Origin: Promethearchaeia archaeon
Lineage (GTDB): Archaea > Asgardarchaeota > Lokiarchaeia > Sigyniarchaeales > SOKP01
DNA length: 64,000 nt
Reading direction: 5' to 3'
Assembly: GCA_049671145.1 (NCBI GenBank)
Contig: JBATUM010000088.1
Span: 13,801 to 77,800 of the forward strand
In this document: in pieces, positions 5,472 through 60,445 of the stretch
Layout: every line of letters begins with the position of its first letter
How positions within the stretch are numbered: position 1 is the first letter of the stretch
The notes under the pieces: generated by a model
Told to the model about the DNA's origin: nothing
Databases searched by the model: none
Seen by the model: the letters and a program-made list of their open reading frames with translations, nothing else
Made by a program: the position numbers and the translations under genes

Positions 5472-6209
5472 ATGCCCGTTCCGATGAGAATCGACAAATT
5501 ATCAAATGGAAAGCCCACCTTATTTATTTATCCTGACACTATTAAATTAAATAGACTATGTAAAAAATTGAATTTATCTTTAAATTTCGAATTATTTTTC
5601 ACTATAGGATTTAAAAATCTAATAAAATATACAAAAAAAAAATACAAAGAAATAACGTTTCGTACGCTAGAAGATAATAAAATCATAGATTGGTTTAATT
5701 ACTCAAAAATAATAAACGCAGATATTTCTTACCTTATATGTGATTTTACATTTTTAACTTCTGAATTTTTAAAATTATATTCAAAAATTGATTTTAGGAA
5801 GGATTTAGAAGAATATCATACTGAATTCATCCAATACTGTGACAGAATAATTAATTTTTTAAAACATAGAATAGAAAATAATATATTAGAAAATGAATGT
5901 GAAAATGTTATTAAAACTGAAAAATTATATGAGGAAAGAGAAAATAAATATTTTCCTAATATAATTTCTCTAAAAATTTATAATTCTAATATAAAGAAAT
6001 GGAAAAATATGAATTTCATTCCATATTTGATATATGATGATCTGTTTGATTCGTTTTCTTATAACAAGAAATTATTACATGAAGAAAAGTATTCACTGTT
6101 TGATTTACAATTATGGAAAGAAAATAATATAATTAATAACGGATCGAAAACTTATGAATTTGTTTTTGAAAAATTTCTTTATAATCTTAATATTAGAGAT
6201 TTAAAGTAG
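5472..6209 (+). CDS. Hypothetical protein, Asn/Lys/Ile-rich, no recognisable domain
   Basis: 245-aa ORF in a strongly AT-rich stretch inside the ABC operon. No motif recognised. Confidence 0.4.
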   Translation: MPVPMRIDKLSNGKPTLFIYPDTIKLNRLCKKLNLSLNFELFFTIGFKNLIKYTKKKYKEITFRTLEDNKIIDWFNYSKIINADISYLICDFTFLTSEFLKLYSKIDFRKDLEEYHTEFIQYCDRIINFLKHRIENNILENECENVIKTEKLYEERENKYFPNIISLKIYNSNIKKWKNMNFIPYLIYDDLFDSFSYNKKLLHEEKYSLFDLQLWKENNIINNGSKTYEFVFEKFLYNLNIRDLK

Positions 6210-6220
6210 GGAATGCTATC

Positions 6221-6676
6221 ATGAAAAAAAAAATTGAAATTGGACGACAATCTAAATTTATTTTAGCATGTTTATTAATTCATTTTTTATACTTTGGATA
6301 TATATGTAATGTATATGAAAAATCGATTGGAGAAAATATTCTCTTTTTATATAGAGTAATGTTTAATCCCCAGTCATATTTATCGCTAATTATTTTATTC
6401 GGTATTATTTTTATCACTGTATTCAGAGAAAGATTTTTTGAATATGGGATTAGAAATAGTATGTGGTTAATTCTGTTTATCATATTCGAATCATGGATAT
6501 GGTATTGGTTTATTAATGGATTTGATATTCTCATAATTTTTACATTTTTTATAAGATATGAAGCTTATATATCAATTCTTTCGTTAGTAGGGCTAAATTT
6601 ACTATCAGCATTTCTTGGCGCTACTTTAAAACAAAAATATATAAAGTATCTTGAAAAAGTTAGAAAAGTTACCTAA
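6221..6676 (+). CDS. Hypothetical membrane protein (about 4 TM)
   Basis: 151 aa with four hydrophobic helices. The start lies 12 nt after the previous ORF. The stop sits inside the right copy of the 11-bp direct repeat. Confidence 0.45.
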   Translation: MKKKIEIGRQSKFILACLLIHFLYFGYICNVYEKSIGENILFLYRVMFNPQSYLSLIILFGIIFITVFRERFFEYGIRNSMWLILFIIFESWIWYWFINGFDILIIFTFFIRYEAYISILSLVGLNLLSAFLGATLKQKYIKYLEKVRKVT

Positions 6677-6680
6677 TCTA
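6670..6680 (+). repeat. 11-bp direct repeat TACCTAATCTA, right copy
   Basis: Exact match to 4835-4845, 1835 bp away. Confidence 0.6.
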
Positions 6681-6740
6681 TCAGAAAATTAAAAAAAAAA
6701 AAAGGAAAAAAAAAATGTATATAGGGTGATCTAATAGTCT

Positions 6741-7757
6741 ATGAGTATGATCAAATATATCTTCAAAAGAGTCCTAAGTATGATACCTGTGTTGTTTGGT
6801 GCTTTATTACTGACATTTATTCTTTCTAGAGCCATGCCAGGCGATCCTGTTTCAGCATACCTCCCTGCCAGAGCCACTCCGGAACAATATTGGGATGCAT
6901 ACTATTCTTACGGATTTCATCTTCCCATCTGGCAACAATTCTTTATATACCTCGGTAACATATTCACAGGAAATTGGGGTAATTCGATTAATGTTGCTAA
7001 AGGTGTACCGGTTTGGGATTTAATTTGGGAACGACTCCCAAGAACCATAGATGTTACCCTCTTTTCAATGATTATTGCTGCATTTATAGGAGTTAAAACC
7101 GGTGTAATTTCTGCAAAGCATCGAAATAAATGGAGGGATACGGTTTTTAGAGGTACAGCGCTTATAGGCGTATCAATCCCTGTTTTCTGGTTAGGGCTAT
7201 TATTGCAATATTTTATCTCTTACCAATTGGGTTGGCTACCTAATATGCACTTTAAAGATGCTGGATATCCAGATCCTCCTATGGTTACGGGTTTTAGAAT
7301 AATTGACTCGTTAATTTCAGGGCAGTGGTACTTAGTAGGGGATTATTTAGTCCACTTGGCGTTACCTGTTTTCTCCTTATCATTTATTTTTCTCGCATCA
7401 ATTACACGGCAAACTCGTTCAAGTATGCTTGAAGTACTTCAACAAGATTATATAAGAACTGCTCGCGCAAAAGGGTGTAAAGAAAAAGATGTAATTAAGA
7501 AGCATGCTCGGAAGAACGCGTTAATCCCAACTGTAACAATTATTGGATTAAACATCGGAGGGTTATTAGGTGGTGCATTTTTAACAGAAACTACCTTTAA
7601 TTTATTTGGAGTCGGCGATCTTTTGTTAGAGGCTATAACAGGTCGTGATTATAGTACACTTAATGCGATTGTTGTTATGACAACGTTAGTTTTTATAATC
7701 GTGAATTTATTTGTGGATATAATTTACGCCTATTTAGATCCTCGAATAAAATATTAA
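6741..7757 (+). CDS. ABC transporter permease (DppB/OppB type)
   Basis: 338 aa, 6 TM. Conserved loop QDYIRTARAKGCKEKDVIKKHARKNALIP and C-terminal AYLDPRI. Confidence 0.9.
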   Translation: MSMIKYIFKRVLSMIPVLFGALLLTFILSRAMPGDPVSAYLPARATPEQYWDAYYSYGFHLPIWQQFFIYLGNIFTGNWGNSINVAKGVPVWDLIWERLPRTIDVTLFSMIIAAFIGVKTGVISAKHRNKWRDTVFRGTALIGVSIPVFWLGLLLQYFISYQLGWLPNMHFKDAGYPDPPMVTGFRIIDSLISGQWYLVGDYLVHLALPVFSLSFIFLASITRQTRSSMLEVLQQDYIRTARAKGCKEKDVIKKHARKNALIPTVTIIGLNIGGLLGGAFLTETTFNLFGVGDLLLEAITGRDYSTLNAIVVMTTLVFIIVNLFVDIIYAYLDPRIKY

Positions 7758-22408: not shown

Positions 22409-22921
22409 TTAAACATTAAATAATTTTTCGCCAAGTTTTATTGTTATTATTGCTTGCAATGCAACAAAAGCTGAAATAACTAAAATTATTCCTATTACTA
22501 AAATTTTTACGGCGGTTTTTTTATTATATACATATTTGGATGCTTGATAGACTAATAAAAACCCTATAGAACAAAGAAAAATGAAAATTGAAGCTACTAT
22601 ACTCTCAATTATAAAAGCTTCGTTAAGATCAGGATATAAAAGAATAGCATTACCTTGTTGATCCGCTCCTATTGCTACAGGGTCTCTATAAATAATATAT
22701 ACTATTCCCATCTGAAGTAGGAATAGGATAATATAAATTCCTATAACCACTAAAGACTTACCTGGTAAAGGCATATCCATTTTAGGAAGTTTTATTTGCG
22801 GATAGGCTATTTTCGGTTTCCTCAATGAATTTCCAAAGACCCAAGGGGTCTTACCTTTTATTTTTTCAAAAATTGTTTCTGAACCACTGATATCTTCTTT
22901 AGCAGTTTTTCGTTTTTGCAT
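22409..22921 (-). CDS. Membrane protein, possibly OST3/OST6 (TUSC3/MagT1)-like membrane domain
   Basis: 170 aa, 3-4 TM. The segment YIIYRDPVAIGADQQGNAILLYPDLNEAFIIESIVASIFIFL resembles, from memory, the TM1-loop-TM2 region of TUSC3/OST3 (..[34 protein letters not shown]..). No thioredoxin domain. Confidence 0.3.
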   Translation of the reverse strand: MQKRKTAKEDISGSETIFEKIKGKTPWVFGNSLRKPKIAYPQIKLPKMDMPLPGKSLVVIGIYIILFLLQMGIVYIIYRDPVAIGADQQGNAILLYPDLNEAFIIESIVASIFIFLCSIGFLLVYQASKYVYNKKTAVKILVIGIILVISAFVALQAIITIKLGEKLFNV

Positions 22922-23005: not shown

Positions 23006-24517
23006 CTATACTAATTTCTTTAATAATGCTATCAAGAAATTCCAAATTTTTTCTACACTGTTTATTTTTAAACGTTCATCTGGTGAATGAACATCAATAA
23101 TATCTGGTCCGATCGAAATTATCTCCATATTTGAATAATGATAATTAAAATAGGCACATTCTAAACCTGCATGAATTGCTTGAATTATAACTTCATTATC
23201 GAATAGTTCTTTATATATCTTATTAGAAAGCTTTGAAATTTTTGAATTGAAATTTGGAGGCCAACTTGGATATTCATATTTGATATTTACATTTAAATCC
23301 AAACCAGATATTTCGAACAATGTTAAAAATTTTTCATATATTAAGTCTAAATCATATTGAGTTAAACTCCTTTGGCTTATTACAAAATTTATAGAATTTT
23401 TTTCAGTTTTTATTGAAGCAAAGTTAGTAGAAGTATGTACCAATTCTTTAGTTATAGGGTGTATCGAAATTGGGCCGTTTGGCATTGAAAATAATAAGTC
23501 TATTAATTTATTCTGTAAATCTCTAGAAATTATTGAAGATTCATTAAAATTTTCCAATTTCTGAATTGAAATTTCCATATTCGATTCAATTCCATTATAT
23601 AACATCTTAATATGCGGAGAATTGTCATTAATAAAATTAATTATCTCAGAAAGATCATTCTCTTCAATAAAAAATATAGCTTCGACTTCTCTTGGAATAG
23701 CATTATCCAAATTACCCCCATTTAAGGAATTTATATAAATATCATATTTTCTTTTTAATTTCCATAAAATTTGAGAAATTATTTTTAGTGCATTCGCTCT
23801 ACCTTTATTAATATCCCCCCCAGAATGCCCACCAACCAGTCCTATAACTGAAAGTTTCATTGGAAATACTTTTTTTTCATTATCTACAGATTGTCTTCCG
23901 TTTTTTACAATAACTTCAAAAACTCTTCCTCCTGCAGCACCAATAGTAAATCTATTTTCTTCCTCTGAATCAAGATTTATCATATAGGAGCCACTTATCA
24001 TATTTTTATCAATTTGACTTGCACCAGTTAGACCTCTCTCTTCATCTACAGTAAATAAAAGGTCTAATGAAATAGGGCCTAGATCTAACTCTCCTTTATA
24101 GATTTTTTTCATAATCGCTAGTTGGTAAGCCATTCCAACAGCATTATCCGCTCCTAAAGTAGTACCATTTGCGGTTATCCACTTTTCATTATTAATTTCA
24201 ATTAAATTCAAATCTAGCGGATCTTTCGAAAAGTCGTGCTTAACATCATCATTCTTTTCGCAAACCATATCCATGTGGCTTTGCAAAATAACTCCTGACT
24301 CCTTACTTTTTACTTTTGAAGGAATTTTAATTACTATGTTGTTAACTCGATCTGTCCTAGTTATAAAACCCATTTTTTCTGCTTCTTTTTGAATAAAAAC
24401 TCTCATTTGATCCTCATTTCCAGAGCATCGAGGAATTTTTGATATTTCGAAAAAATATTCCCAAAATTCTAAAGGTTTACCCAATTCTTTTAAATCTTCC
24501 ATCATAATCGCTTTCAA
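23006..24517 (-). CDS. pepD: Aminoacyl-histidine (Xaa-His) dipeptidase PepD, M20 family
   Basis: 503 aa. FFEISKIPRCSGNE, QSHMDMVCEKN, ANGTTLGADNAVG, FTVDEERGLTGA, GLVGGHSG and HAGLECA match PepD. Confidence 0.85.
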   Translation of the reverse strand: MKAIMMEDLKELGKPLEFWEYFFEISKIPRCSGNEDQMRVFIQKEAEKMGFITRTDRVNNIVIKIPSKVKSKESGVILQSHMDMVCEKNDDVKHDFSKDPLDLNLIEINNEKWITANGTTLGADNAVGMAYQLAIMKKIYKGELDLGPISLDLLFTVDEERGLTGASQIDKNMISGSYMINLDSEEENRFTIGAAGGRVFEVIVKNGRQSVDNEKKVFPMKLSVIGLVGGHSGGDINKGRANALKIISQILWKLKRKYDIYINSLNGGNLDNAIPREVEAIFFIEENDLSEIINFINDNSPHIKMLYNGIESNMEISIQKLENFNESSIISRDLQNKLIDLLFSMPNGPISIHPITKELVHTSTNFASIKTEKNSINFVISQRSLTQYDLDLIYEKFLTLFEISGLDLNVNIKYEYPSWPPNFNSKISKLSNKIYKELFDNEVIIQAIHAGLECAYFNYHYSNMEIISIGPDIIDVHSPDERLKINSVEKIWNFLIALLKKLV

Positions 24518-24600
24518 TGAAAATATAAATATGTATTATTTTTTATTACTTATAAGAATAATATTAATTTTCTTATAATCTTAACGTGAGAGATTTTTAA

Positions 24601-25707
24601 ATGAGTAGCTGGAAAGATTTATATTCTGAAGTTAAGCAACGTAAAATGGAAGCTCTAAACAAAAAGGATGTTGTAAAAGCAGTTGAAGAACATGGTAAAA
24701 TTTTGGCTGTTGAAGGACGATATGAAAAACCTAAAAAAATTATTGAACATATGTATGCCGCAGCTCATGAGACAATAAAACCAAAACAAATCATGAAATA
24801 TAACCTTAAAGATTATGATGTTGTGTTGATTGGATGCCCAGCTGATGGAGTACCACATGCAGCTTATCCAAAAATTAAAGAGTATGTATCATCACATGGA
24901 GGCTGGTTAATTACCACAGATTGGGCAATAAAAACTATGGTTGAAGTAATTTTTCCAGGATATATTCGCTGGAATGGAAAAAAGACTGCTGATGCCGTTG
25001 TTGCTTGCCAAATTATGGAGCCAAACCATCCATTTTTGGATGGCGTCTTAACTGAAATCCAACAGAATAAATGGCAAAAAGGAGCCTCAAAAAATACTAA
25101 AAAAACAGAATTTCGATGGTGGTTGGAGACTAAGAGTTTTCCCATTAGTATATTGAATCCAGCGGTTCATATTTTAATATCATCGCAAGAAATCCTACGA
25201 AAGTGGGGAGAATCTCCTGTTTTTGTGTATTTTGATTATGGGAAAGCTGGTGGTAGAGTAATTCATATGATCTCCCATACTCATTTACAAAAAGGAGGTG
25301 TTAAAGGAAAATATGCTTCAGCACTAATACTTACTAATATTTTAGACGAAAAAGTTTCTCAAAAGACAGGTATTTCAAAGACCCCTACGCCTGGATATGT
25401 ATCTAATTGGGAACAAGCCCAACAACCTCAGCAGCAATATGTAACACCAAGTCAACAAAATAATTTTTTAAATCCTTCGGACGCAGTAAGTGGATTAACA
25501 GGAACTGCACAAATCGTAGATGTAAATGCAAATAGCAACGAATTTTCATTTGCTAGTACATGTGGTTATTGTGGATATGACTTTGGGGAATATACTGGCA
25601 AAATTTATATGTGTAATGCCTGTAAAATACCATATCATGAAACGTGTTTAAATATGCAGATAAATGAAGGTACGTGCAAAAATTGTAATAAAATTTTATT
25701 ATGGTAA
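24601..25707 (+). CDS. Two-domain protein: GATase1/ThuA-like N-domain, Gln-rich linker, C-terminal C4HC3 (PHD/RING-like) zinc finger
   Basis: 368 aa. The N-domain motif YDVVLIGCPADG...GGWLITTDWA is a flavodoxin-like/GATase1-like pattern. The linker is WEQAQQPQQQYVTPSQQNN. The C-terminus has C321-x2-C-x13-C-x2-C-x4-H-x2-C-x9-C-x2-C362 (nt 25561-25686). Confidence 0.5.
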   Translation: MSSWKDLYSEVKQRKMEALNKKDVVKAVEEHGKILAVEGRYEKPKKIIEHMYAAAHETIKPKQIMKYNLKDYDVVLIGCPADGVPHAAYPKIKEYVSSHGGWLITTDWAIKTMVEVIFPGYIRWNGKKTADAVVACQIMEPNHPFLDGVLTEIQQNKWQKGASKNTKKTEFRWWLETKSFPISILNPAVHILISSQEILRKWGESPVFVYFDYGKAGGRVIHMISHTHLQKGGVKGKYASALILTNILDEKVSQKTGISKTPTPGYVSNWEQAQQPQQQYVTPSQQNNFLNPSDAVSGLTGTAQIVDVNANSNEFSFASTCGYCGYDFGEYTGKIYMCNACKIPYHETCLNMQINEGTCKNCNKILLW

Positions 25708-25914
25708 TTCCACATTTTATTTCTTATCCTTTTTTTCCTTTAAACTATTATGTTCCTTTAACCTTTTAATTTACTTTTATGATATTACATACACATATAT
25801 CAGAATAATGTTTAAGTATGTATGAATAATCGTGAAAGGGGGGTTTCACGAACTTATTTTTAAAATACTCTTTTTACTACCTTTTATTTTATACTGAATA
25901 TTATTATATAGATC

Positions 25915-26265
25915 ATGAAAAAAAAAGCCTGTAAAGTTGTAGAAGATTATAAATCCGCTTATCCAGATCCTTTTATAGTGAATAAGGGTGAAATATTGAG
26001 AATTGAAAATAAAGAATTTGAATGGTCTGGCTGGATTTGGTGCGTTAAGAATGATGGCGAAGGAAGGTGGGTTCCAATGGATCATATAGAACTTAAAGAA
26101 ACTCGAGCTAAATTTATCCAAGATTATAATTCCATAGAATTAACAGTATCTGCTGGGCAAATCCTAACTATTGAAAAAGAATCATATGGTTGGATTTGGG
26201 TAATTGATGAAAATAATAAAACTGGATGGATACCACTAAAAAATGTCAAAATTTTGAATGAATAA
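25915..26265 (+). CDS. Tandem SH3-like domain protein
   Basis: 116 aa made of two ~50-aa repeats. Each has an SH3-like pattern: EDY..(x)..NKGEILRI...GWIWCV..DGEGRWVPMDHI and QDY....SAGQILTI...GWIWVI...KTGWIPLKNV. Confidence 0.5.
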   Translation: MKKKACKVVEDYKSAYPDPFIVNKGEILRIENKEFEWSGWIWCVKNDGEGRWVPMDHIELKETRAKFIQDYNSIELTVSAGQILTIEKESYGWIWVIDENNKTGWIPLKNVKILNE

Positions 26266-27273: not shown

Positions 27274-28392
27274 TTGAAAATTGAAAAAGGTTGGGATTTT
27301 AACACGAATGAACAATTACTAGGAGTAGTTCTAGGAACTCTAACCGAAAGTAGCAAAAAACAAATTATTACATATACTAAATCTGGAAAAATCCTAATAT
27401 TCTCATTAAATGGGAAACTATTGTTTAAAGATGAGATAACACAAAATACGCCAATTTGGAAAGCACTATTATATGATATAGATAATGATGGTAAAGAAGA
27501 ATTACTTCTAGGTGGAATGGATGGACTTTTAAGAGCATTTAAATATAATAATGAATTTGAGTTAGAACCTTATTGGACCCATAGATTTGGATCCTCAATT
27601 GGGGGAATTTTAGTAGATGATCTTAATAATAACGGAAGTAATGAAATTATCTCCTATTCTCTTGATAAGAGCCTAAGAATCCTAAACCCATTAGATGGTT
27701 CTTTAATATGGGGACAAATTTTTGAAGAAGGCATTGGTGATGCGCTAATATGGAAAAACTCAGTAGATTCCGATAAGATTGAAATCATTGCTTGTAGTAA
27801 TGATGGCACAATAAGAAGTTTTGATAATAAATGTGGAGAACTACTCTGGTTTAAACGATTTTCTGATAAAGTTAGGTGTTTATCATATATGCATTCATAT
27901 CAACATGATTATATTGTATGTGGAGGAGATGATAAAAAAGTACATATTATTGATAAAGAAGAAAAAGAAGAAATTAAAACAATCGAAACAGATGATATTA
28001 TTTGGAAATGCCTATCATTTCCTCCACAACGACTTAATAGTTTATTAGTAAGTTCCTATTCTTTTGAATTTTTAGATAAATCAACCCCAATTAAAGATAT
28101 AAAATTCACTTCAAAAGTAATGTGCTTCAATGAGAATTTTGGTGTAAAGTGGGAGTATAAAAATGTAAATACTGAAATTCTCAGCTATATTAAAACGTTT
28201 GAAAACAAGTGCATCGTGATTGGAACAACACGTGGTTATTTAATGCTATTAGATGAAGTCAATGGTAAATTATTAGCTCAAATTAATAATCCTTCTTGTT
28301 TAAATGGTTTTGGCTTTGATACTGATTCAAAGATATTAATAACTTGCCATGATGATGGATATATTTATGCTTTTATTCTTGATAAAAAGTAA
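27274..28392 (+). CDS. Beta-propeller repeat protein (FG-GAP/PQQ-like blades)
   Basis: 372 aa, TTG start. Recurring blade motifs: YDIDNDGKEELLLGGMDGLLRAF, DDLNNNGSNEIISYSLDKSLRILNPLDGSLIW, IIACSNDGTIRSFDNKCGELLW, IVCGGDDKKVHII, ITCHDDGYIYAF. Confidence 0.55.
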   Translation: MKIEKGWDFNTNEQLLGVVLGTLTESSKKQIITYTKSGKILIFSLNGKLLFKDEITQNTPIWKALLYDIDNDGKEELLLGGMDGLLRAFKYNNEFELEPYWTHRFGSSIGGILVDDLNNNGSNEIISYSLDKSLRILNPLDGSLIWGQIFEEGIGDALIWKNSVDSDKIEIIACSNDGTIRSFDNKCGELLWFKRFSDKVRCLSYMHSYQHDYIVCGGDDKKVHIIDKEEKEEIKTIETDDIIWKCLSFPPQRLNSLLVSSYSFEFLDKSTPIKDIKFTSKVMCFNENFGVKWEYKNVNTEILSYIKTFENKCIVIGTTRGYLMLLDEVNGKLLAQINNPSCLNGFGFDTDSKILITCHDDGYIYAFILDKK

Positions 28393-58470: not shown

Positions 58471-59364
58471 ATGTCATCGACTACTAGATGTCCGAGATGT
58501 GGGAATGAAGTTCGCGCAGATTTTTTTGTGTGTGCTTTTTGTGGTAAACGTTTAAGAATTGAAAGGATTGAAAATTTTTCATTTTTTAAACGAATTGAAA
58601 CTGAGTGGACTACTCCTGATCGATGGTATACTATCCTTTTATGGTTATTTATAAAACCTAACAAAGCATTTTGGAGTATTAATCATCGCAGAAAATCAGC
58701 TCCAGGCTATTTTATATTACTATTTAATGCATTACTTTTTGGAGTCATGGGGATAGCATATTTCTCTCATTTCAATATACAGGATATCCCTCCACTAGGA
58801 GTTTTTATTTATAATTTAGTAATCTTTTTAGCTTTCTTCATCTTTGGGTTTGCCTACTTTTTCATTTTTGGATTTATTTTAATATGGTTATTCACAAAGG
58901 GAGCAAACTATGCAGTTGGTTTTTCAGAAAAATTAGAATCCTTTTTTGGGGGGTCAGAAAGAGAAGAATATAGTGAAGCAGAAATGAGTGTATTCAGTAT
59001 TTATAAAGGAGGTACTTTACATCAGCAACAGGCATTTAAATATAAAATGATGTTTTGCTCATTTGCTCCTTTCTTACTAATTAATCTTATTGAAGTTATC
59101 ATTATTTTAGCAGGTTTTCCGACCGTATCCATAAATGTACTAGGTTTATTTAATCCAACTATATTTAGTCAAATTTTTAATTCTTCGACATGGACAGTTT
59201 TACATTTCATTGATGCTATAACAATTGCGGTATGGATTCCAATATTAGTTGCACTTTCTATCAGAGAATTATCAAACTCATCAACAACTCGAGTCTTATT
59301 ATCCTCTCTAATAATAGGGATATTGGTGGCCGTAATTTTCTTTTTTCTGCGCCCAACATTTTGA
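58471..59364 (+). CDS. N-terminal zinc ribbon fused to a 5-6 TM Yip1-like membrane domain
   Basis: 297 aa. RCPRCGNEV....FVCAFCGKRL, then IKPNKAFWSI... followed by multiple TM helices. The Yip1/DUF1282-like assignment is by eye. Confidence 0.45.
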   Translation: MSSTTRCPRCGNEVRADFFVCAFCGKRLRIERIENFSFFKRIETEWTTPDRWYTILLWLFIKPNKAFWSINHRRKSAPGYFILLFNALLFGVMGIAYFSHFNIQDIPPLGVFIYNLVIFLAFFIFGFAYFFIFGFILIWLFTKGANYAVGFSEKLESFFGGSEREEYSEAEMSVFSIYKGGTLHQQQAFKYKMMFCSFAPFLLINLIEVIIILAGFPTVSINVLGLFNPTIFSQIFNSSTWTVLHFIDAITIAVWIPILVALSIRELSNSSTTRVLLSSLIIGILVAVIFFFLRPTF

Positions 59365-60175: not shown

Positions 60176-60445
60176 TTGCCACGGCCAGGATTAAGATCGA
60201 AAGCACAAGCAAGAAAGAAATTAAAAACTCCAGGTAATCGGAATGCAACCCATTATTGGAGAAAAAAACCCAGTAAAGCTCACTGTGCGGTTTGTAAAAA
60301 ACCTCTTCAATCAATTCCAAGATTAAGACCATCTGAAATGAAGAAAACAAATCTAACTTCAAGAAGAGCTAATAGAATAGAGAGTGGACGCTATTGTGCT
60401 AAATGTTTACAAATTTTAATTAAAGATGCAATTTGGCATTCATAG
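60176..60445 (+). CDS. rpl34e: Ribosomal protein eL34
   Basis: 89 aa, TTG start. RSKAQARKKLKTPGNR..HYWRKKPSKAHCAVCKKPLQ and GRYCAKCL form the zinc ribbon. Confidence 0.85.
   Translation: MPRPGLRSKAQARKKLKTPGNRNATHYWRKKPSKAHCAVCKKPLQSIPRLRPSEMKKTNLTSRRANRIESGRYCAKCLQILIKDAIWHS

Follow-up and report, generated by a model that had tools for sequence, protein, structure and literature searches.

RING-type E3 ligases and ubiquitin operons are already known from Asgard archaea and Aigarchaeota, and the RING proteins described from them have so far been small and stand-alone. One of these, the srfp E3 of the Caldiarchaeum subterraneum and Asgard ubiquitin operons, has a third and a fourth ligand displaced by two residues and an extra Cys, and it depends on I30, W58 and R69 (PMC5654768). 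Here we describe a gene at 24601..25707 (+) of a 64-kb stretch of a Promethearchaeia archaeon contig (the window, by which we mean the whole stretch of DNA analysed), the product of which ends in a predicted RING-type cross-brace finger like that of srfp but carries in front of it a 257-residue enzyme-like domain and lies outside any ubiquitin operon. Because Asgard RING proteins and ubiquitin operons are known, this kind of protein is not in itself new; new are the fusion of the finger to the N-terminal domain, the domain family itself and its conservation. We found no description of the protein or its architecture in the literature, and Pfam and NCBIfam do not cover it, which bears out the remark of an earlier note, made from the sequence alone, that the architecture was unfamiliar from characterised proteins.

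The open reading frame (ORF) begins with ATG and encodes 368 residues followed by a stop codon, with no internal stops. Its product is a cytosolic two-domain protein, with no signal peptide or membrane segment anywhere in the 368-residue sequence. The N-terminal domain takes up residues 1–257 (24601..25371, +). It is followed by a Gln/Pro-rich low-complexity linker, EQAQQPQQQYVTPSQQNN, at residues 258–296 (25372..25488, +), which varies in length and sequence among homologues in a 42-sequence alignment and is predicted to be disordered (pLDDT 26–35, and below 50 for residues 261–290), so the Gln-rich linker of the earlier note is confirmed. A conserved pre-finger segment, SGLTGTAQIVDVNANSNEFSF, occupies residues 297–317 (25489..25551, +); L299, T302, Q304, I305, N311, F315 and S316 are invariant or nearly so in the same alignment, and a beta-strand is predicted at 301–308 with pLDDT above 80. 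The finger module itself takes up residues 318–368 (25552..25704, +).

We read this protein, with a probability of roughly 0.4, as an E3-like adaptor in an Asgard ubiquitin system, in which a RING-type finger tethers a probable enzyme. It is a candidate ubiquitin-ligase-like adaptor rather than a chromatin reader because a distant relative, P0131, is encoded in a complete ubiquitin operon; of the two roles that the earlier note had offered side by side, E3-like or reader, the first is thus favoured by the operon copy, and no supporting evidence was found for the second. A conserved Asgard RING-like protein with its own substrate-side domain would match the modular design typical of eukaryotic E3s. 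If the E3-like reading is true, the protein offers a testable case of substrate-specific ubiquitin ligases before eukaryotes; if it is false, the protein is still a conserved and unexplained partner of Asgard OST-region genes.

Ligands and predicted fold of the C-terminal finger

The protein tail reads STCGYCGYDFGEYTGKIYMCNACKIPYHETCLNMQINEGTCKNCNKILLW. Its eight ligands follow the pattern C321-x2-C324-x13-C338-x2-C341-x4-H346-x2-C349-x9-C359-x2-C362, spanning nucleotides 25561 (C321) to 25686 (C362) exactly as the earlier note had given them, and are followed by N-K-I-L-L-W and the stop codon. Seven of the nine Cys residues of the protein fall inside this 42-residue ligand stretch. When the protein was shuffled 200,000 times, a PHD-style C4HC3 pattern never appeared, and it is absent from all other six-frame ORFs in the window. 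In the alignment of 42 homologues the eight ligands are invariant, as are Y323, Y345, Q353, N355, G357, K360 and the C-terminal I-L-L-W; a basic residue (K/R364) stands two positions past ligand 8, and no Trp precedes C7. The spacing of 13, 4, His and 9–10 is kept in 130 of 131 finger-bearing relatives.

To describe the fold we used AlphaFold2 (AF2) models of the full-length protein and of the isolated finger, which were compared with PDB structures by Foldseek. The tail reached a predicted local distance difference test (pLDDT) score of 83–91 in the full-length model, and the isolated finger scored 85. The finger is predicted to contain a hairpin (335–338/344–346) that holds the C338-x2-C341 knuckle, a helix at 347–356 and a strand at 365–367. 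This topology agrees with that of binuclear RING-like treble clefs, in which the primary hairpin comes first, ligand 6 is followed by a helix and the C-terminal strand begins at the last ligand (PMC4506424). The isolated finger superposed on RING structures over 50–53 columns, with a template modelling (TM) score of 0.70–0.75, a root-mean-square deviation (rmsd) of 1.8–2.4 Å and probabilities of 0.96–0.99. The highest TM score was that of the Slx1 RING (0.74–0.75), alongside RNF12 (TMq 0.73, 1.8 Å), RNF4 (0.71), RNF24 (0.71) and EL5 (0.70), and the RINGs of GATOR2/SEA, Nse1 and Rad18 were also among the matches. The Foldseek E-values are weak (0.06–0.4), in keeping with a query of 54 residues. 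Zinc pairing was inferred from the fold, which would place C321, C324, H346 and C349 in site 1 and C338, C341, C359 and C362 in site 2.

Sequence profiles separate the possible finger types less well than structure prediction does. Across 19 diverse fingers of the family, Pfam returned C1_1 for all 19, PHD, RH_dom and Prok-RING_1 for 18 each and zf-RING_2 for 16, with best E-values of 2.4e-8 for zf-RING_2 and 3.6e-7 for C1_1; all 18 Prok-RING_1 matches lie below threshold. The whole query protein gave PHD (PF00628) as its top match, with C1_1 (17.0 bits) and Prok-RING_1 (14.4 bits) behind it; for the latter, Prokaryotic RING finger family 1 (PF14446), the query scores 14.4–17.1 bits against a cut-off of 29.1. 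No zf-RING_2 match to the whole query was found at E ≤10. When the family finger profile was run against PDB sequences, RING-H2 E3s came first (RNF24 at 1.9e-5, then RNF38, Arkadia, EL5 and RLIM), nearly level with the C1 domains of PKC delta and theta (E 7e-5) and with PHD fingers, so that RING-H2, C1 and PHD chains were all matched between 2e-5 and 3e-4. By such profiles the three types are inseparable.

Taken with its predicted fold, the finger is best described as a RING-type cross-braced binuclear finger, predicted from the models, and "RING-like with a C4HC3 ligand set" is a better label than "PHD". The earlier note had proposed a C4HC3, PHD- or RING-like cross-brace finger; its Cys4-His-Cys3 ligand order and cross-brace type hold, whereas PHD is not the best name and RINGv gave no match in the Pfam scan. 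The RING-H2 E3s (RNF12/RLIM, RNF24, RNF38, Arkadia, EL5 and RNF4) are the closest known fingers both by profile and by whole-finger structure (TM 0.70–0.73, rmsd 1.8–2.2 Å), and they share with the query the central helix after ligand 6 and the short C-terminal strand after ligand 8. They differ in being C3H2C3 rather than C4HC3, with a ligand 4–5 spacer of 2 rather than 4, and in having the helix Trp and the Pro after ligand 7 that the query lacks; the query also stays under the zf-RING_2 cut-off. The C4HC3 variants of RING, namely the Slx1 C-terminal RING, the RING-like domain of Nse1 and RING-CH/RINGv, have the ligand order in common with the query, but the Pfam matches of the finger to SLX1_C and zf-RING-like are weak and far under their cut-offs, and the partners of these variants are a nuclease or a kleisin-associated module, in contrast to the GATase1-like domain found here.

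A ubiquitin-operon homologue and the candidate E3-like role

P0131, a protein of 339 residues, aligns with the query end to end at 34% identity (E 1e-70), has the same two-domain architecture and retains the conserved Cys, Asp and two His residues of the N-terminal domain. Its finger passes the zf-RING_2 gathering threshold (29.6 bits against 27.3). On two contigs (L089 and L090) P0131 takes sixth place in a tight cluster of genes on the same strand. The first gene encodes an E2-like/RWD-like protein that ends in a RING (UQ_con 35.8 bits, Prok-RING_1 27.2 bits and RWD matches), and the next three encode ubiquitin (34.9 bits), a ThiF E1 (165 bits) and a UQ_con E2 (55 bits). The fifth is a JAB/Rpn11 gene (51 bits) with which the start of P0131 overlaps, and the gene after P0131 encodes a 263-residue protein with another finger of the same spacing. 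The cluster, at 1525–7516 of L089 and likewise on L090, is a complete archaeal ubiquitin operon with three proteins ending in the same finger type (C-x2-C-x12/13-C-x2-C-x4-H-x2-C-x10-12-C-x2-C). The finger profile of the query family matched the E2-like protein with the RING at E 1e-5 in a search of 4,697 ORFs. The ubiquitin ORF ends in ...GFSVRL rather than GG.

The operon copy also links the family to srfp, which we compared by its published description (PMC5654768). P0131 sits in an operon of the srfp type, after the JAB gene, and the ligand shift and extra Cys of srfp would be consistent with the C-x2-C-x4-H arrangement seen here. At the positions through which E2 is contacted, P0131 has Ile, Trp and Arg/Lys (C-T-I-C, C-L-E-T-W and C-R-K). 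The query has a hydrophobic residue before ligand 2, Y323, as srfp has I30.

We suggest that the finger, joined to the rest of the protein by its disordered Gln/Pro linker, would act as a docking module that recruits a partner, for which we favour an E2~ubiquitin-like conjugate, and that the protein would serve as an E3-like adaptor, with the N-terminal domain choosing or processing the substrate and acting on a protein or a protein-linked group. Docking is the likely task of the finger, and the work proper, or the choice of substrate, that of the N-terminal domain; we infer both E2 binding and any catalysis. Given the fold, the profile similarity to RING-H2 fingers and the operon copy, an E3-like role is tentatively the best supported of the specific mechanisms.

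Several observations weigh against this role. As a whole protein the query stays under every Pfam cut-off, and it departs from the RING patterns C3HC4 and C3H2C3, which have 2–3 residues between ligands 4 and 5: its spacer of 4 is PHD- or C1-like, compared with 2 in RING. The helix position four residues past ligand 6 holds an invariant Gln353 in the query lineage, where P0131 and srfp (W58) have Trp, and C7 is followed by Lys360 rather than Pro; the loss of these E2-contact residues weakens an E3-like role. The structural evidence comes from predicted models and not from solved structures. A set of 5.8 billion proteins holds no close relative of P0131, and the link to a ubiquitin operon is confined to its one lineage. 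The earlier note had pointed to ubiquitin systems in the Asgard context; no ubiquitin, E1, E2 or JAB genes were found in the 64-kb window, nor within 5–8 kb in the other fetched loci, including 80 Asgard species loci, with the P0131 contigs as the exception. The neighbours that are conserved (OST3/6, a peptidase, a beta-propeller, GT4 and ribophorin I) point away from ubiquitin.

These same neighbours give the main rival its content. The finger may be a RING-like module for protein–protein interaction, dimerisation or localisation with no ligase role, and the N-terminal enzyme would then be tethered to membrane partners that handle N-glycoproteins or peptides, its function being set by OST3/6, the divergent peptidase, the beta-propeller, GT4 and ribophorin I. 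We consider this possible although somewhat doubtful. In 78 of 80 Asgard species loci the gene is found together with OST3/6 and the M20 peptidase upstream, and in diverged lineages where the order has changed, related genes still adjoin it (P0122, P0125 and P0287). The E2-contact Trp and Pro are gone while Y323, Y345, Q353, N355, K360 and I-L-L-W are invariant, which suggests a specific, non-canonical partner, and many RING-like treble clefs are not E3s (PMC4506424). Against this, the linkage may be no more than inherited synteny of a larger block (RadA-MptE-GcvH-OST3/6), the neighbouring genes lie on different strands in apparently separate transcription units, the protein has neither signal peptide nor membrane segment, and the operon context of P0131 is left unexplained.

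A genuine PHD finger that reads a protein tail, such as that of an Asgard histone, and brings the N-terminal enzyme to chromatin is improbable. The C4HC3 order and the first six ligand spacings are within the PHD range, some NCBI orthologues are named "PHD finger domain-containing protein", and the Foldseek matches include MLL1 PHD3 and plant AL PHD fingers. By Pfam the finger is a borderline case: the whole protein reaches 19.8 bits (E 8e-4), under the cut-off of 24, while the tail alone comes just over it at 25.2 and 24.7 bits, and C1_1, RH_dom, Prok-RING_1 and zf-RING_2 score equally well across the family. Classical PHD fingers have a last spacer of about 12–46 residues and usually a Trp two residues before ligand 7. 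The query lacks this Trp, and its spacer between ligands 6 and 7 is 9 residues, with 9–10 in all 131 relatives, so the short last loop that the earlier note had remarked on is a property of the whole family. In structure, PHD fingers overlap only in part, aligning over 33–35 of 54 columns (the first residues only) or over the full length at an rmsd of 5–7 Å, whereas RINGs superpose over their full length at about 2 Å; where the query has its central helix, PHD has its C-terminal half. No chromatin genes were found in the neighbourhoods examined.

A C1/FYVE-like module that binds lipid or membrane, with the invariant hydrophobic I-L-L-W end as its insertion element, is very doubtful. The C1 consensus is H-x12-C-x2-C-x13/14-C-x2-C-x4-H-x2-C-x7-C, and the core spacing C-x2-C-x13-C-x2-C-x4-H-x2-C of the query is the same; together with the C1_1 matches to all family fingers, the PKC delta and theta matches, one orthologue named "C1 domain-containing protein" and the membrane-related OST3/6 neighbourhood, this is what speaks for it. 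The two ends of the motif disagree, however, with V308 instead of His at 13 positions before C321, and with C-x2-C after 9 residues in place of a single Cys after 7. The C1_1 scores of the query (17–22.6 bits) stay below the cut-off of 26.5, and the top 50 structural matches of the finger contain no C1 domain.

Two sequential zinc ribbons or knuckles, binding nucleic acid or purely structural and with no RING-like fold, are highly improbable: the weak Pfam matches to Zn_ribbon_3, DZR and ADK_lid and one low-probability Foldseek match to the archaeal zinc finger HVO_2753 (0.41) fall far short of the RING, PHD and C1 matches, and the predicted hairpin-helix-strand topology with the C338-x2-C341 knuckle inside the hairpin, the full-length superposition on RINGs and the hallmark of cross-braced fingers, His346 at ligand 5 followed by x2-C, all speak against the sequential ribbons that the earlier note had named as what would refute its reading.

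The N-terminal domain and its conserved residues

The earlier note had seen a flavodoxin/GATase1-like domain of about 250 residues in front of the linker, and Foldseek on the predicted model supports this. The full-length AF2 model has a mean pLDDT of 77.9, with the N-terminal domain mostly at 80–97, and the domain matched class I glutamine-amidotransferase-like (GATase1-like) structures of the PDB at E 6e-7 to 1e-4 with a probability of 1.0. These include PabA-type proteins, TrpG, PH1346 and GMP synthase subunit A (2a9v, TMt 0.69), all between E 6e-7 and 1e-5, and further matches are the middle domain of GH42, ThuA-like 1t0b and homoserine O-succinyltransferase (HTS). Going by the model, the fold is class I glutamine-amidotransferase-like (flavodoxin-like) and probably belongs to the ThuA/GH42M/DUF4350/GIFT branch.

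At the level of sequence the relationship is faint. Neither Pfam nor NCBIfam matched the N-terminal domain of the query even at E ≤10, GATase models included, and among 21 relatives there were sub-threshold Pfam matches to GH42M (6 of 21), ThuA (3), DUF4350 (3) and ABC_transp_aux (1). The N-terminal-domain profile gave sub-threshold matches in the PDB to ThuA-like 4e5v (E 0.03), IFT52 (0.17) and GH42M chains, and phmmer gave a marginal match of 2cyj to the query (E 0.008–0.012). A phmmer match to 4grh was judged to be chance. With hhalign the same profile did not match an approximate sequence of E. coli PabA, and a profile search with distant N-terminal domains in a word-indexed database returned Asgard orthologues only and was uninformative. 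The domain has in common with ThuA-like, GH42M, DUF4350 and GIFT proteins (IFT52 and GldG) the fold, a strand-helix-strand signature that reads "...FV..GG..." and, close to the last strand, an H-x3/4-H, and 4e5v aligns an H-x4-H in the His222–His226 region. It differs in that no curated cut-off is reached, and its own motif set (N/G-C-P-G, T-T-D-W and H-x-x-S-H-x-x-L-Q) is absent from the aligned ThuA-like, IFT52 and GH42M chains.

Four polar residues stand out by their conservation. Cys79 (codon 24835..24837, +) lies in the motif (N/G)-C-P-G after strand 74–77, Asp107 (codon 24919..24921, +) in T-T-D-W-A after strand 102–106, and His222 and His226 in H-M-I-S-H (25264..25278, +), part of the motif H-x-x-S-H-x-x-L-Q, where the last strand of the domain ends. 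All four are kept in 123 of 128 distant representatives that cover the four positions; across 122 distant representatives Cys79 and Asp107 are each conserved at 99%, His222 at 98% and His226 at 100%, and Cys79 and Asp107 are invariant in both homologue alignments (A1 and A3). Also conserved are G39, D/E42, G100-G101, W173, E176, S179 and S195. After His226 the chain enters a flexible loop, T-H-L-Q-K-G, in which residues 227–232 have pLDDT values under 50, and position 228 is Tyr in most relatives.

T-T-D-W-A has the small-x-Nu-x-small form of a nucleophile elbow. Mapped onto GATase1 by the order of predicted secondary structure only, Asp107 would stand at the position of the nucleophilic Cys, His226 at that of the catalytic His, and Cys79 at the strand end that carries the "GGPG" oxyanion loop; the four residues may cluster in space. 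The GATase1 triad of elbow Cys, His and Glu, with its H-P-E, is not kept on this mapping, the elbow being T-T-D107-W-A and the distal motif S-H226-T-H228. A different and strictly conserved residue set in the classical pocket, and four polar residues that fall by strand order in the active-site loops of the fold, suggest that the domain is most probably an enzyme or, failing that, a pocket for a metal or ligand, to which interchangeable adaptor modules are attached.

Two paralogues, P0133 and P0140 (on L093 and L094), have lost Cys79 and Asp107 together (to Ser and Gly) and kept the finger. P0133 has lost both His residues as well and carries an extra C-terminal zinc ribbon. By their sequences both look like pseudo-enzyme derivatives.

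We also considered that the N-terminal domain founds a new enzyme family, a GATase1 scaffold with a relocated active site wired in Asgard archaea to a RING-type finger as an ancestral "E3 plus editing enzyme", which we think unlikely. The active site would then be an Asp107 nucleophile elbow with His226, or a Cys79-His226-Asp107 triad, and the target would be side-chain amide or isopeptide bonds, making the protein deamidase-, isopeptidase-, deubiquitinase (DUB)-like or N-glycanase-like. Its role might lie in the quality control of proteins that are secreted or N-glycosylated, prefiguring in prokaryotes the logic of endoplasmic-reticulum-associated degradation (ERAD). Such an enzyme would explain both the ubiquitin-operon copy and the neighbourhood of OST3/6, ribophorin I, GT4, peptidase and beta-propeller.

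Distribution and genomic surroundings

Relatives were sought in a set of 5.8 billion proteins, in GTDB species-representative genomes and, by exhaustive hidden Markov model (HMM) search, among 1.84 billion representatives. The protein set held 238 homologues, the best 120 of them full length at 65–86% identity, and the named sources of the close homologues are metagenome-assembled genomes (MAGs) of Lokiarchaeia/Promethearchaeota. Among the GTDB species, 138 genomes contain a relative; the 80 best loci are all from Asgard MAGs at 64–97% identity, with Promethearchaeota MAG YT2_053 the closest (97%). The gene is thus a core, strongly constrained Lokiarchaeal gene under strong purifying selection.

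The HMM search found 775 clusters (at 50% identity) with E ≤1e-3 and 466 with E ≤1e-10, most of which match only profile positions ~30–235, that is, the N-terminal domain. In place of the finger, the distant relatives carry FHA (15 of 72 long proteins), HEAT (7), SH3 (4), PBZ (2), kinase (1) or GGACT (1) modules. This exposes a sizeable family lacking a curated model, with invariant Cys, Asp, His and His residues and signalling-type fusion partners. Its members come from bacteria, Asgard archaea and bdelloid rotifers, and also from virus-like contigs, with Armatimonadota, a deltaproteobacterium and bdelloid rotifers among the named distant sources. The one bacterial neighbourhood examined, that of P0153, shows no obvious operon. 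A reading as a defence system was dropped, since neither PHROGs nor PADLOC matched the query or five relatives.

Rotaria sordida (A0A813ZZ75) and Rotaria sp. Silwood2 (P0162, P0154) encode the N-terminal domain, and at least one bdelloid copy is fused to PBZ (poly-ADP-ribose-binding) zinc fingers; the rotifer copies are possibly horizontal acquisitions. A 60-kb contig, L008, encodes at 6001–6858 a 285-residue homologue that consists of the N-terminal domain only, with its Cys, Asp and two His residues intact, and this contig looks like a virus or mobile element because it carries many small unannotated ORFs, an integrase and a DNA methylase. One relative at 32% identity was found on an IMG/VR viral contig (L097).

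In the window, the gene is preceded by a divergent M20 peptidase gene (23006–24517, −), and the 83-nt region between the two (24518..24600) is AT-rich, with a TATA-like "cttataatc" about 20–28 nt 5' of the ATG that suggests a promoter. A T-rich stretch directly 3' of the stop codon (25708..25760, +) is a possible archaeal oligo-T terminator. Beyond the peptidase lie an OST3/OST6 homologue (22409–22921, −) and the GcvH, MptE-like and RadA-like genes. On the downstream side follow a tandem-SH3 protein of 116 residues (25915–26265, +; Pfam SH3_2, E 4e-15), a ferredoxin, a membrane protein and a beta-propeller (27274–28392, +) that matches BBS7, Itfg2, FG-GAP and ACSF4-type propellers.

Across the 80 species loci the divergent arrangement of peptidase and target is found in 78, a ferredoxin in 68 and the beta-propeller in 46. 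The SH3 gene is found in 9, its place in most Lokiarchaeia being taken by one M20 peptidase gene or two; a downstream link to M20 peptidase, seen in some genomes, was set aside for the window, where the SH3 protein stands there. In diverged Asgard lineages the gene order has been rearranged several times, and OST3/6 and the beta-propeller have stayed near the target. For P0122, OST3/6 is the next gene downstream, and a beta-propeller, GT4 and Trm112 are on the other side; for P0125 and P0287, a divergent S15/S9 peptidase gene lies upstream, and the downstream genes encode a beta-propeller, GT4 and ribophorin I. The GT4 here is Alg7/AglH-like. These surroundings may reflect synteny of ancestral origin or a functional tie to the N-glycosylation region, and the genes around the N-glycosylation machinery may form an ancient Asgard block.

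In one genome a 655-residue DUF885-SH3 protein is encoded near the target gene. Further along the window, a RING protein of the operon, used as query, gave a weak match to the ORF at 60176–60445 (+), which we rejected as chance: its ribosomal-protein-like zinc ribbon is not a RING. This ORF encodes a basic protein of 89 residues with C-x2-C...C-x2-C in an apparent ribosomal-protein/kinase/SecY cluster (60–64 kb), and is probably a zinc-ribbon ribosomal protein. The ORF at 58471–59364 (+) encodes 297 residues with an N-terminal C-x2-C...C-x2-C zinc ribbon, and its product looks like a membrane protein because several hydrophobic segments follow the ribbon.

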